From an uncultured Bacilli bacterium (GTDB lineage Bacteria > Bacillota_I > Bacilli_A > RF39 > UBA660), in the NCBI GenBank assembly GCA_947585915.1, contig CANPXJ010000002.1:1-38913 (forward strand): DNA of 38,913 nt, given 5' to 3'. The notes under the pieces were generated by a model, which saw only the letters and a list, made by a program, of their open reading frames with translations, did no database searches and had not been told where the DNA came from. Each line of letters opens with the position of its first letter. Position 1 is the stretch's first letter. Shown here one piece after another: positions 3,985 through 7,566 of this stretch. The position numbers and the translations under genes are program-made.

Positions 3985-4016
3985 TGTCTAAAAGTATCGT
4001 TTTTGTGTCTAAAAAG
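3985..4016 (+). promoter_or_regulatory. Direct repeat TGTCTAAAAG x2 with 21-bp period upstream of agrB (candidate LytTR regulator site)
   Basis: TGTCTAAAAG at 3985-3994 and TGTCTAAAAAG at 4006-4016, start to start 21 bp. LytTR regulators such as AgrA bind paired 9-bp direct repeats at about this spacing. Confidence 0.35.
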
Positions 4017-4132
4017 TTTATAATGTTAAGTTACAGTTAATAATTCAGACTATTGAAACTTTAAAAAATCATTTTAAGACCTAAATTAAAATTTATCAAA
4101 AAATATTTGTTATTATCGAATTGTGAAGTAGT

Positions 4133-4735
4133 ATGAAAAAGAAATTTTTAGATTATTCAATGAATTTAATAAAAGAAAAAAATAATTACAGCGATATAAA
4201 ATTAGCTGAATTAAAATATGGACTAGAAGCGTTTTATATGTTAGCAACCAAACTACTAGTTATATTTGTTTTAGCGATTGTACTAGGTTTGTTTAAAGAA
4301 TTAATGTTATTTATGTTTTTTTATACTCCTCTTAGAGGGTTAGGTTTTGGCTTTCATGCAAACAGTAGTATAGAGTGTTGGATTATAAGCTTACCCACTT
4401 TTATAATTATACCTTTTTTAGCAAAAACACTTTCTATTCCCATATATATAATTCATATAATAATCTTATTTTCAGTAATATCATTTTTGTTTTTTGCTCC
4501 AGCTGATTCCCACAAAAAACCTTTAGTAAATACTAAAAAAAGATTAATAAATAAATCAATATTAGTAATAATTAGTTTAATTTATTTATTTTTAACAATC
4601 ATTATTAAAAATGAACTTATTATAAACACTTTAATGTTTGCTTCTTTATGGCAAGCTATCTGTGTAAATCCCTTAATATATAAATTATTTAATCAACCAT
4701 TTAATAATTATAAAACATATTTAAAAGAGGTTTAA
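4133..4735 (+). CDS. agrB: AgrB-family membrane endopeptidase (autoinducing-peptide maturation)
   Basis: 200-aa polytopic ORF. PLRGLGFGFHANSSIECW gives R68-G69...H75...C82, the same R/G-7-H-7-C spacing as the S. aureus AgrB R70/G71/H77/C84 catalytic set. It is followed by an agrD-like mini-ORF. Confidence 0.85.
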   Translation: MKKKFLDYSMNLIKEKNNYSDIKLAELKYGLEAFYMLATKLLVIFVLAIVLGLFKELMLFMFFYTPLRGLGFGFHANSSIECWIISLPTFIIIPFLAKTLSIPIYIIHIIILFSVISFLFFAPADSHKKPLVNTKKRLINKSILVIISLIYLFLTIIIKNELIINTLMFASLWQAICVNPLIYKLFNQPFNNYKTYLKEV

Positions 4736-4785
4736 ATGAATTAAAATATATTTAAACAAAATTTAGTAGTAAAGGAGGTAAAATA

Positions 4786-4899
4786 ATGTTAGCAAATATT
4801 TTTGCAGGTATTGGTTCAATTTGCTCACACGCTGTTTCTACATTTACTTTAATGTGGATAGCTGATGAACCTGAATGTCCAAAATCTTTAATTAAATAA
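4786..4899 (+). CDS. agrD: AgrD-like autoinducing-peptide precursor (37 aa), not in the ORF track
   Basis: AAAGGAGG lies 7 nt upstream of the ATG at 4786. Translation: MLANIFAGIGSICSHAVSTFTLMWIADEPECPKSLIK. It has a hydrophobic or amphipathic leader, and its acidic tail DEPECPKSL aligns with the S. aureus DEVEVPKEL recognition tail. It sits 50 nt downstream of agrB. Confidence 0.75.
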   Translation: MLANIFAGIGSICSHAVSTFTLMWIADEPECPKSLIK

Positions 4900-4902
4900 T
4901 TT

Positions 4903-4930
4903 AAGACGCATTATTTCGATGATGCGTCTT
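4903..4930. terminator. Shared hairpin between the convergent agrBD and regulator/kinase operons
   Basis: AAGACGCAT (4903-4911), a 10-nt loop, then ATGCGTCTT (4922-4930), followed by T-rich sequence on the plus strand. The hairpin also encodes the last codons of the kinase on the minus strand. Confidence 0.6.
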
Positions 4931-6206
4931 TTAGTTTTACTTTAATGGTTACTTTGAACAAATTATTTATAACTTCTTTTTTTAACGACAAAAAATCAAC
5001 TTCCTTTTTTGCCGTTTTTTCTATATAGTTTAAACCAAGACCACCTTTTTTATTTTTTGTTGAATAGTTTTTTTGACCAATTTTATTTAAATCAATTTCA
5101 TTATTAAATGTATTTATGAATTCTAATATTAAATTGTTTTTGATTTGTTTTATTTCGATATATATAACTTTTTCTTTGGTTTTTTCGGAAGCATAAATAG
5201 CATTATCTAAAACAATACCAATTACATCGCATAAGTAAGAATATTGTTTAGACGTTAGCTTCTTTAAATTAGTTTCTTTAATACTACTATTTATTTCAAT
5301 ATTTAGCTTTCTTTTTTTTAATTCTTCTAATTTCAAATAAATTAAACCTTGTAATCCTTTAGGCATTTTATCAAAATTATTTATCCACTCATAATTCTTA
5401 TTATATTTTTTCAATTTTTCATCAATTAATTTTTGAGACTTTTTTGATGAAATGCTTTTTATAGCAAGCAAATCATTATTTAAATTATGTTTTAATTCTT
5501 TATAATCATCAATAATTTGCTCGTATTTATTAATTTTTTCTTGCAAATCTTTAGATTTAATCATGTATATTTCATTTTTATAATTGATTTTTAATATATT
5601 AACAATTAAAATGGATACAAAAAATAATATTATAGCATTGAATATATTATTCATGTTATTTTTATAATCTATATTAAACCGAATTAAGATAAGATTTAAT
5701 AAAACTATAGTTATTATAAAAATAAACTCTACAGTAATTTTCTTTTCTAAATAGTTTACTAATTTATATGTTTTTTTTCTTATAAGTTTGTTAGAAAAAA
5801 ACATATATAATAATATCATTAAAATTATAGTTATTCCATATTTTAAAAATAACATTTTATTTAATTGGTTAACATCTTTTATAAATAAAGCCAAAATATA
5901 GCAAATGATAAATTCAATTACCATAGAAAAAATGCTAATGATAATACATGTTAAAATTGTTTCTTTTAGATTTTTTTTAAACCAAATATAATTTAACAAA
6001 ACCAATAATGTAAAACTAATTAAAATTTTAAATATATTTACATTATAAAAATTATTTATAAAATTTATAAGTGAAACAAAAAATAATAATATAATCTTAT
6101 TTTTATTTATATTTAAATTATAGTTATTAATATATTTGAAACATAAAACATGAACAAATTCAGTTAATAACATTAATATTATTCCAATAATGACTCCCGT
6201 TATCAT
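4911..6206 (-). CDS. agrC: AgrC-like (HPK10 subfamily) membrane sensor histidine kinase
   Basis: 431 aa. The N-terminal ~200 residues are multi-pass hydrophobic. H-box YKELKHNLNNDLLAIKS, N-box VLDNAIYAS, G-box KKGGLGLNYIEK. There is a 4-nt ATGA overlap with the upstream LytTR regulator. Confidence 0.8.
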   Translation of the reverse strand: MITGVIIGIILMLLTEFVHVLCFKYINNYNLNINKNKIILLFFVSLINFINNFYNVNIFKILISFTLLVLLNYIWFKKNLKETILTCIIISIFSMVIEFIICYILALFIKDVNQLNKMLFLKYGITIILMILLYMFFSNKLIRKKTYKLVNYLEKKITVEFIFIITIVLLNLILIRFNIDYKNNMNNIFNAIILFFVSILIVNILKINYKNEIYMIKSKDLQEKINKYEQIIDDYKELKHNLNNDLLAIKSISSKKSQKLIDEKLKKYNKNYEWINNFDKMPKGLQGLIYLKLEELKKRKLNIEINSSIKETNLKKLTSKQYSYLCDVIGIVLDNAIYASEKTKEKVIYIEIKQIKNNLILEFINTFNNEIDLNKIGQKNYSTKNKKGGLGLNYIEKTAKKEVDFLSLKKEVINNLFKVTIKVKLKDASSK

Positions 6207-6907
6207 ATCATCTCATCCCTATACTTTTTAGATAAAAAATTAACTTCTTCTTTTGTATCTAAAATAAATTTACCATCTTTCCAATCATATTTAGAAATTC
6301 TTTGCGTATTGGCAATACATGATCTATGAACTTTTTTAAATCGATCATCTAAATCTTTTAAAATATCATCTAATGATTTATTAACTAAAAAAGAATTATT
6401 AGTAGTTTTAATAACTAACTTTCTTTCATCTTTATCACGATAAATATATAAAATATCTTTCATATAAATTTGTAAATCTATTTGATTATTTTTATATTTA
6501 AAAATTCCCTTATCATATTTTTTCTTTAATATAAGATCTATACATTTACTAAGTCTTTCTTCCATATGATCAAATTTTTCAATAAATTTAAATACTTTTA
6601 GGATACTATTATAAACTTTTTGTTCGTAACTAGTATGATTTGTTAAAAATATTATTTCACTATCCCAATCTTTTTCTCTAATTTTTAACCCAATATTAAT
6701 ACCAGTAATTTTACTTTGCAGACAAATATCTAAAATATATATTTTTCTTTGAGATAAATCGTCAATTTCTTTTAGTAAAGAAGCATTATATTTTTTATAG
6801 TAACTTACCTTTATAGTTTCATTATATTTAAAATAGAAAGGGTCTAATATTTCTTGAATTGTTTCTTGATCTTTTATATCATCTTCTACTACTATAATCT
6901 TTATCAT
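6203..6907 (-). CDS. agrA: LytTR-family response regulator (AgrA-like)
   Basis: 234 aa. Receiver domain (IIVVEDD, IYILDI) plus a C-terminal LytTR-type segment (...KVHRSCIANTQRISKYD...). Confidence 0.8.
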   Translation of the reverse strand: MIKIIVVEDDIKDQETIQEILDPFYFKYNETIKVSYYKKYNASLLKEIDDLSQRKIYILDICLQSKITGINIGLKIREKDWDSEIIFLTNHTSYEQKVYNSILKVFKFIEKFDHMEERLSKCIDLILKKKYDKGIFKYKNNQIDLQIYMKDILYIYRDKDERKLVIKTTNNSFLVNKSLDDILKDLDDRFKKVHRSCIANTQRISKYDWKDGKFILDTKEEVNFLSKKYRDEMI

Positions 6908-6975: not shown

Positions 6976-7566
6976 TTATTTATCCATTATTTTGTTCATT
7001 TTTTGGATTATATATTTGTTTCCTTCAAAATAAGTAAAAGTTTTAATTTGTAATTTTTCTTCTATTTTTCTAGCTAACTCTTCGATTTTACTAAAGTTTC
7101 CTATAACTCTTAATTCATTTATTTTGGATTGTTTTTCTAAAAAGTTAAGTATTTCCTCTTGAATATCTTGATTAAAATTATTATAATCTAAAAAATAATT
7201 TTTATTTTGAATTGTTATTAAGGCATTTTTATGGTTAACATTAATAGTATCATTATCAATTATGCTATTATATTTAATAAATTTTACTTTATTAAAAGAT
7301 AATTTTTCAAAGACTGACATAATTAATTCTTTATCGCTCTTTAAATAATTTGGATATTCCAAAATAAAAATATCTTTTCCTAATAAAGAATCATTTAATT
7401 TATTCTTCTTTAGTATTTTATTAAAAAAACGATAAAATTCTTCCGTTTGAGCAATACGATTGTTTACGATTAAAGTTTTATCGACCTTTTCTTCATAAAT
7501 ATTATCTTTTGAAGCTAAATATACACAATCATCTGTTAAATAAACAGCAATATTTTTCTTGGCCAT
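6976..7566 (-). CDS. Hypothetical protein (196 aa)
   Basis: Long ORF with AAGGAGG upstream and no motif I recognise. It lies downstream of the spoIIQ-like gene on the same strand. Confidence 0.75.
   Translation of the reverse strand: MAKKNIAVYLTDDCVYLASKDNIYEEKVDKTLIVNNRIAQTEEFYRFFNKILKKNKLNDSLLGKDIFILEYPNYLKSDKELIMSVFEKLSFNKVKFIKYNSIIDNDTINVNHKNALITIQNKNYFLDYNNFNQDIQEEILNFLEKQSKINELRVIGNFSKIEELARKIEEKLQIKTFTYFEGNKYIIQKMNKIMDK

Follow-up and report, generated by a model that had tools for sequence, protein, structure and literature searches.

In this study we analysed a 38,913-nt stretch of DNA from an uncultured Bacilli bacterium (contig CANPXJ010000002.1, positions 1 to 38,913; hereafter the window), in which a short open reading frame (ORF) at 4786..4899 on the forward strand follows an agrB gene. 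Homology identifies this ORF as the gene of an AgrD quorum-sensing peptide precursor and not as a chance reading frame. The explanation that we favour, and consider fairly probable, is that it is a functional agrD of an agr-type quorum-sensing locus in uncultured gut Bacilli, the product of which would be a six-residue macrolactone closed through Thr21. Whether Thr21 closes the ring, so that this lineage makes either a Thr-linked six-residue macrolactone or a hexapeptide arising from it by O-to-N rearrangement, with threonine as a third natural nucleophile in agr signals, we judge to be about an even question. The initial annotation had described an AgrD-like propeptide with leucine in place of the ring-forming cysteine. 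This anomaly is largely explained by a one-residue register error together with a genuine and milder peculiarity, a threonine in the nucleophile column of a family with six-residue rings. The peptide family as such is already recognised, and NCBI and JGI list some of its Cys-type members as 'cyclic lactone autoinducer peptide'; what is new is the Thr (and Ser) subclass with its six-residue register, the members of which all belong to uncultured gut Bacilli.

The translation of the ORF is the 37-residue peptide MLANIFAGIGSICSHAVSTFTLMWIADEPECPKSLIK, with the stop codon at 4897-4899. This translation is exactly as the initial annotation had quoted it, and the ribosome-binding site is AAGGAGG at 4772..4778 of the forward strand, 7 nt 5' of the ATG. 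The ORF starts 50 nt after the agrB stop on the same strand, an arrangement kept in all orthologous loci, and all the orthologous agrD genes retain the ribosome-binding site and the reading frame. The peptide can be divided into a predicted leader (residues 1-20, 4786-4845), a predicted ring (T21-L-M-W-I-A26, 4846-4863) and a follower (D27-EPECPKSLIK37, 4864-4896), all on the forward strand. Most of residues 1-17 of the leader (MLANIFAGIGSICSHAV) are hydrophobic, and this stretch can be aligned with the leaders in related peptides; the follower segment D27-E-P29-E-C-P32-K-S-L is acidic, contains a Pro-x-x-Pro motif and is invariant in 14 close relatives. A Pro-x-x-Pro motif has been described in the AgrD follower (PMC8748961). 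Relatives were sought with the peptide lengthened by the three in-frame codons upstream of it, since queries had to be at least 40 aa long, and this returned 13 peptides; a profile built from those 13 found 819 relatives in the database, and HMMER, run exhaustively over 1.8 billion cluster representatives, gave 173 matches with E <= 0.001. Cys-type relatives were matched by phmmer with the window peptide at E = 4e-8 to 1e-2. Two of these matches that were scored, P0005 and P0013, pass the AgrD profile TIGR04223 at 30.8 and 26.9 bits (cut-off 19), and the orthologue in locus L001 scores 24.1 bits. The mini-ORF, for which the initial annotation had considered a lack of conservation, is thus conserved. 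Moreover, the identical 37-aa peptide occurs together with an identical AgrB in five other assemblies from different samples, so that it is not a sequencing error. Two alleles in one 90% cluster read ...TFTLMWIM... and ...TFTFMWIM..., and the records of loci L001-L003, from rabbit, mouse and Hadza samples, bear the title 'uncultured Bacilli bacterium'.

The evidence that carries the reading of Thr21 comes from the column of the family in which this residue stands. We anchored the relatives on the follower motif (Asp/Glu-Glu-x-x-x-Pro) and numbered the preceding residues back from the Asp. Of the 117 close relatives that carry a DEPECPKSLIK-type follower, 108 have Cys at -6, 7 have Thr and 2 have Ser, and Cys is found at -5 in none. 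Over all 266 anchored peptides, 215 have Cys at -6, 22 have Ser and 21 have Thr, and 8 have a Cys at -7. Ser or Thr occupies -6 in 41 of the 43 peptides that have no Cys between -8 and -4, and both residues are scarce in the ring columns -5 to -1. The window residue in this Cys/Ser/Thr column is Thr21, encoded by ACT at 4846..4848 of the forward strand, six residues before Asp27, and Leu22 is the first position inside the ring. The window peptide has neither Cys nor Ser at the nucleophile site and thus possesses this feature of the family only if Thr counts as a nucleophile. The codon in this column is ACT in the window, in L004 and in three paralogues of L008, AGT in L001, TCT in L006 and TGT in L002 and L003; these four codons are single-step neighbours and all encode nucleophilic side chains. 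When the ring is left out of the comparison, several Ser/Thr-type peptides resemble a Cys-type peptide more than any other Ser/Thr-type one; P0146, for instance, is 0.84 identical to the Cys-type P0053. This suggests repeated switches between Cys, Ser and Thr at this codon in the family, for which trees of such short peptides are weak evidence.

The agrB gene (4133..4735, forward strand) encodes a membrane peptidase/cyclase of 200 aa that matches Pfam AgrB at E = 3.9e-31 and NCBIfam AgrB-like at E = 3.8e-35. All 10 orthologues compared have its H75 and C82, which line up with the catalytic His/Cys pair of S. aureus AgrB. The earlier description of an AgrD-like propeptide beside a catalytically intact AgrB holds. 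We propose that AgrB would recognise the follower D27-EPECPKSLIK and cut between Ala26 and Asp27 to leave an acyl-enzyme on Cys82, which the side-chain hydroxyl of Thr21 would resolve to give the six-residue macrolactone Thr-Leu-Met-Trp-Ile-Ala. Thr21 stands where most relatives have their Cys. Once it had been exported and had lost its leader, the peptide would be sensed by the AgrC-like kinase encoded next to agrD, and the LytTR regulator would activate agrBD through two TGTCTAAAA boxes upstream of agrB, closing the autoinduction loop. If the leader were cut exactly at Thr21, an O-to-N acyl shift to an all-amide (homodetic) cyclic hexapeptide would be chemically plausible; tail-free clostridial Cys-type autoinducing peptides (AIPs) rearrange by an S-to-N shift, and the fate of tail-free Ser lactones has been left unresolved (PMC8251862). 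A Thr-linked lactone with a six-membered ring was one of three products listed in the initial annotation, and our sequence comparisons point to it as the best-supported of them.

Several points weigh against this interpretation. Against TIGR04223 the peptide MLANIFAGIGSICSHAVSTFTLMWIADEPECPKSLIK scores only 18.2 bits (cut-off 19), with residues 23-37 alone aligned, and against Pfam AgrD (PF05931) it scores 14.4 bits (cut-off 22.7). We nevertheless regard it as an AgrD because the two Cys-type relatives scored among those that it matches do pass TIGR04223, an argument of transitive homology. The relatives come from metagenome assemblies throughout. The C-terminal boundary of the putative ring is placed by analogy with the homologous site at which S. 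aureus AgrD is cleaved, and AgrB would have to use the more hindered secondary alcohol of Thr. Finally, no description of a Thr-closed AIP was found in the literature, coverage of which was incomplete and does not prove absence.

Both of these last points also favour a linear signal, the alternative that survives best although we hold it to be unlikely. It supposes that AgrB only strips the follower and that the acyl-enzyme is hydrolysed, a hydroxyl, especially that of Thr, being too poor a nucleophile. In general chemistry, thiols are stronger nucleophiles than secondary alcohols, and this counts in favour of such a course. However, the near-fixation of Ser or Thr at -6 in Cys-less peptides, where Ala, Gly and Asn never occur, disfavours a linear product, since these residues would be expected if no nucleophile were needed. 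Furthermore, the Ser codons in this column, AGT and TCT, belong to unrelated families. Documented AIPs include Ser lactones (PMC12312760, PMC5322536), and linear AIP analogues are inactive in the systems tested (PMC8251862, PMC5322536).

A further question is the size of the ring. Most characterised AIPs have five-residue rings (PMC12312760), which speaks for a Thr21-closed ring of T-L-M-W-I with the cut between Ile25 and Ala26 and with Ala26 in the follower. Our alignments make this quite improbable, and we infer instead a cut between Ala26 and Asp27, which would give the six-residue ring T-L-M-W-I-A. Column -1 is hypervariable in the 266 anchored peptides; it varies as much as the rest of the ring does, in contrast to the invariant follower. 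The same column differs even between near-identical alleles of one 90% cluster, in which A26 is replaced by Met. D27 is also homologous to D33 of S. aureus AgrD-I, the known P1' residue there, and stands at the same profile position. Six-residue macrocycles are known among AIPs, namely Rc-AIP1 (CWFWSY) of R. cellulolyticum and the AIP of C. acetobutylicum (PMC8251862), and are also mentioned in a recent primer (PMC12312760). The sequences T-WFWSA and S-WFWYH, which occur in relatives of the window peptide, bear a striking likeness to C-WFWSY. No relatives of AgrB were detectable by sequence in the PDB, and hence there is no structural argument on ring size.

The claim that Leu22 stands at the ring-forming position, which would leave an aberrant AgrD with no canonical nucleophile whose product is linear or cyclised without precedent, now seems very improbable. 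It arises from alignment to AgrDs with five-residue rings; in the TIGR04223 register given by S. aureus and C. perfringens, Leu22 falls at position 23, the Cys position. The TIGR04223 profile models a five-residue ring, and the S. aureus and C. perfringens AgrD sequences score 33 and 53 bits against it. C28 and D33 of S. aureus AgrD-I fall at profile positions 23 and 28, and D27 of the window also falls at position 28; the tail D27-E-P-E-C-P-K-S-L takes up the profile positions of the S. aureus tail. The residue-for-residue alignment on which the initial annotation relied is right for this tail and one residue short for the ring. In the family, Cys is never at -5 among 266 members and stands instead at -6, the column of Thr21, and the Cys-type P0013 and L002 need one net inserted residue relative to TIGR04223 between the N-terminal part and the tail. 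The Leu22 column varies (L, F or W) among close alleles and paralogues, in which Thr21 stays Thr or Ser. The leucine-for-cysteine anomaly is therefore a register artefact, because the reference was a set of five-residue-ring AgrDs such as that of S. aureus. For the same reason, alignment to the generic AgrD profile places the tail of the window peptide and cannot place its ring. Related genomes, in which the initial annotation had considered a Cys at the position of L22, have none there but carry it one residue earlier, at T21.

Other residues had been considered as nucleophiles. Thr19 and Ser18 do not stand out as such, as their columns (-8 and -9) are rich in Ser and Thr in Cys-type members too. 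Cysteine occurs in the window peptide, as had been stated, solely at residues 13 and 31. Cys31 was thought to be unusual, but it is invariant in the 14 closest relatives, and the column holds mostly Met and less often Ala or Thr in more distant ones; it is an ordinary follower position of the family. A ring closed by Cys13, which would be a large thiolactone that spans some 14 residues and ends at Ala26, is hardly credible: Cys13 is kept in many close Thr-type relatives within a GS[IVL]C[ST] motif, but the position lies in the hydrophobic leader, and some Cys-type peptides, such as P0063, have a Cys there as well. The C13-SHAV ring raised in the initial annotation was likewise rejected, as Phe takes the place of Cys13 in the Ser/Thr-type L001/P0132, P0121, P0135, P0158 and P0225. 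Because of this replacement we read Cys13 in the alignments as a hydrophobic leader position.

It is equally doubtful, to the point of being scarcely tenable, that the locus is degenerating and that the loss of Cys marks a non-functional agrD: locus L010 carries an IS200/IS605-type transposase after the terminator, and its identity to the window breaks off within the 3' end of agrC, but many samples and species-level relatives have an intact ORF, ribosome-binding site and follower, the window itself has an intact kinase and regulator and the catalytic residues of AgrB, one relative shows a tandem agrD expansion, and a hypervariable ring with a fixed nucleophile is the signature of active AIP specificity groups.

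Our comparison of AgrB proteins revealed a pattern that we do not take as a marker of hydroxyl use. A Glu directly precedes the catalytic Cys (IEC or LEC) in all six Thr/Ser-type AgrBs, in the window as E81-C82 at 4373-4378. In Cys-type AgrBs nearly all the residues at this place are I, M, Q, Y, H, N or D, and the commonest form is W-I/M-C. The idea that this Glu signals the use of a hydroxyl was rejected, as locus L066 pairs an IEC AgrB with a Cys-type AgrD, and the pattern is confounded by phylogeny and may be purely phylogenetic. A metagenome scan with the AgrB alignment gave 80 loci, of which all those with an agrD found are Cys-type (71, plus L066 by inspection), and no new Thr/Ser-type AgrB/AgrD pair appeared among them. 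The agrB partners of the independent Thr-type peptides P0127 and P0151 are absent from their contigs, which are 1-1.5 kb long.

The region upstream of agrB contains two perfect 9-bp copies of the direct repeat TGTCTAAAA on the forward strand, at 3985-3993 and 4006-4014, which lie 21 bp apart from start to start and are followed by a TATAAT hexamer at 4019-4024. This repeat pair is the only perfect match in the window, and across 6 orthologous loci the boxes form a conserved island in agrB upstream regions that have otherwise diverged. AgrA sites consist of 9-bp repeats with a 12-bp spacer, the architecture of LytTR regulators. Because the spacing in the window matches this known architecture, the TGTCTAAAA pair is likely to be a candidate binding site of a LytTR (AgrA-like) regulator.

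The remaining genes of the locus lie convergent to agrBD. An agrC-like sensor histidine kinase of 431 aa is encoded on the reverse strand at 4911..6206, and its N-terminal half is hydrophobic and its C-terminus of the GHKL type (Pfam HATPase_c_5, E = 3.8e-11); its match to AgrC is weak (E = 0.0012), and a kinase gene stands at the same position in orthologous loci. It is accompanied on the same strand by an agrA-like response regulator of 234 aa (6203..6907), with a receiver and a LytTR DNA-binding domain, which matches Pfam LytTR at E = 2e-14 and NCBIfam quorum_RR_AgrA at E = 1.8e-15, under the equivalog cut-off. As both proteins score far below the S. aureus equivalog cut-offs, they are assigned by profile comparison as members of these families and not as orthologues of S. 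aureus AgrC and AgrA. Between agrD and the kinase gene, 4 nt past the agrD stop, lies a hairpin resembling an intrinsic terminator (4903..4930, forward strand), with a 12-bp stem followed by a T-rich tail, a dG of -14.6 kcal/mol and z = -4.9 against shuffles; the terminator scan found 2 terminator-like sites against 0.1 expected. Since the hairpin extends into the 3' end of the agrC-like gene on the opposite strand, it may serve as a two-way terminator for both genes. In locus L010 (3150-3887), agrB, agrD and the terminator are identical to those of the window, and the identity stops about 7 nt past the hairpin (window ~4937 onward), after which a Y1 transposase of 157 aa, of the IS200/IS605 type, is found; this break may be an insertion disrupting agrC in some strains or an assembly join.

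The gene order is SecA, ribosome hibernation factor (HPF), cold-shock protein (Csp), agrB and agrD, with agrC and agrA reversed, and this synteny from SecA to agrA is common to the Thr/Ser-type loci L004, L006 and L017 and the Cys-type loci L015 and L016. Directly downstream of the agrA-like gene lies a 196-aa ORF (window 6976-7566, reverse strand) with no significant Pfam match; genes of 180-198 aa, also without a Pfam match, are in a similar position in the Thr/Ser-type L004 and L017 and in the Cys-type L015 and L016, so that a conserved but uncharacterised gene may accompany the agr locus here. An Rfam scan of the window gave no match, and thus no RNAIII-like or other known RNA.

Other members of the family show further variation. 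In P0157, P0161, P0173, P0197, P0246 and P0262 the sole nearby Cys is at -7 and there is no nucleophile at -6, which implies from the alignment that seven-residue rings are also present within the family; P0134 and P0204 have a Cys at -7 plus a Thr or Ser at -6. A close relative of the window has three tandem agrD paralogues after one agrB (L008 1047-1484, L009 1470-1907), each with its own AAGGAGG and all Thr-type with the pattern F-T-W-x-W, and their rings read TWFWSA, TWIWIA and TWIWLS. One strain with three such genes may make several related signals. The Ser-type locus L006 (ring SWWWLA) has two tandem AgrC-like kinases of 422 and 427 aa downstream of agrD (L006 4121-6674).

Among known systems, the closest parallels in ring size are Rc-AIP1 and the C. 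acetobutylicum AIP (PMC8251862), which share with the predicted product a six-residue macrocycle with the nucleophile as its first residue, an aromatic hydrophobic ring and production by an AgrB/AgrD pair. These peptides differ from that of the window in being closed by Cys as a thiolactone, which is converted to a lactam by an S-to-N shift, while the window peptide has Thr. Parallels in chemistry are the Ser-lactone AIPs, in which a hydroxyl instead of a Cys thiol closes the ring through an ester and not a thioester, as we predict for the window peptide. Such lactones have been described for S. pseudintermedius, for GBAP of E. faecalis and for C. difficile AgrD2, NSA[SSWVA] (PMC12312760), as well as for the pentapeptide of C. 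thermocellum (PMC5322536), and are regarded as rare exceptions among AIPs (PMC8251862, PMC12312760, PMC5322536). Ser-type members, in L001 and L006, occur within the window peptide's own family. The known Ser lactones differ in using Ser and in having rings of 5 or 9, whereas in the window peptide the residue is Thr, with its secondary alcohol, and the ring is predicted to have six residues. S. aureus AgrD-I (YST[CDFIM], follower DEVEVPKEL) has the same division into leader, core and acidic, Pro-containing follower, and the two systems also share the profile position of the follower Asp, the AgrB His/Cys pair, a LytTR regulator and direct repeats upstream of agrB. However, AIP-I is a five-residue thiolactone, unlike the six-residue lactone predicted here, agrBDCA are co-transcribed in S. 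aureus whereas agrCA is convergent with agrBD in the window, and no RNAIII-like element was found by the Rfam scan in the window.

AIPs are described in reviews as Cys thiolactones or, rarely, Ser lactones. In the large AgrD family of uncultured gut Bacilli described here, Thr or Ser stands at the Cys column in about 16% of the sampled members. Genome mining that expects Cys at the fifth residue ahead of the follower, or that relies on the generic profile of AgrD, would predict the wrong core peptide for this family. If the Thr and Ser types are indeed cyclised, AgrB-type cyclases would be more tolerant of the nucleophile than has been documented, and AgrB would accept a thiol, a primary alcohol and a secondary alcohol alike. 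In that case the signals would vary in their linkage, which could be a thioester or the ester of a primary or a secondary alcohol, and these linkages differ in stability and in their capacity for rearrangement; the chemistry of ring closure, with its consequences for stability, hydrolysis rate and rearrangement, would itself be under evolutionary tuning.

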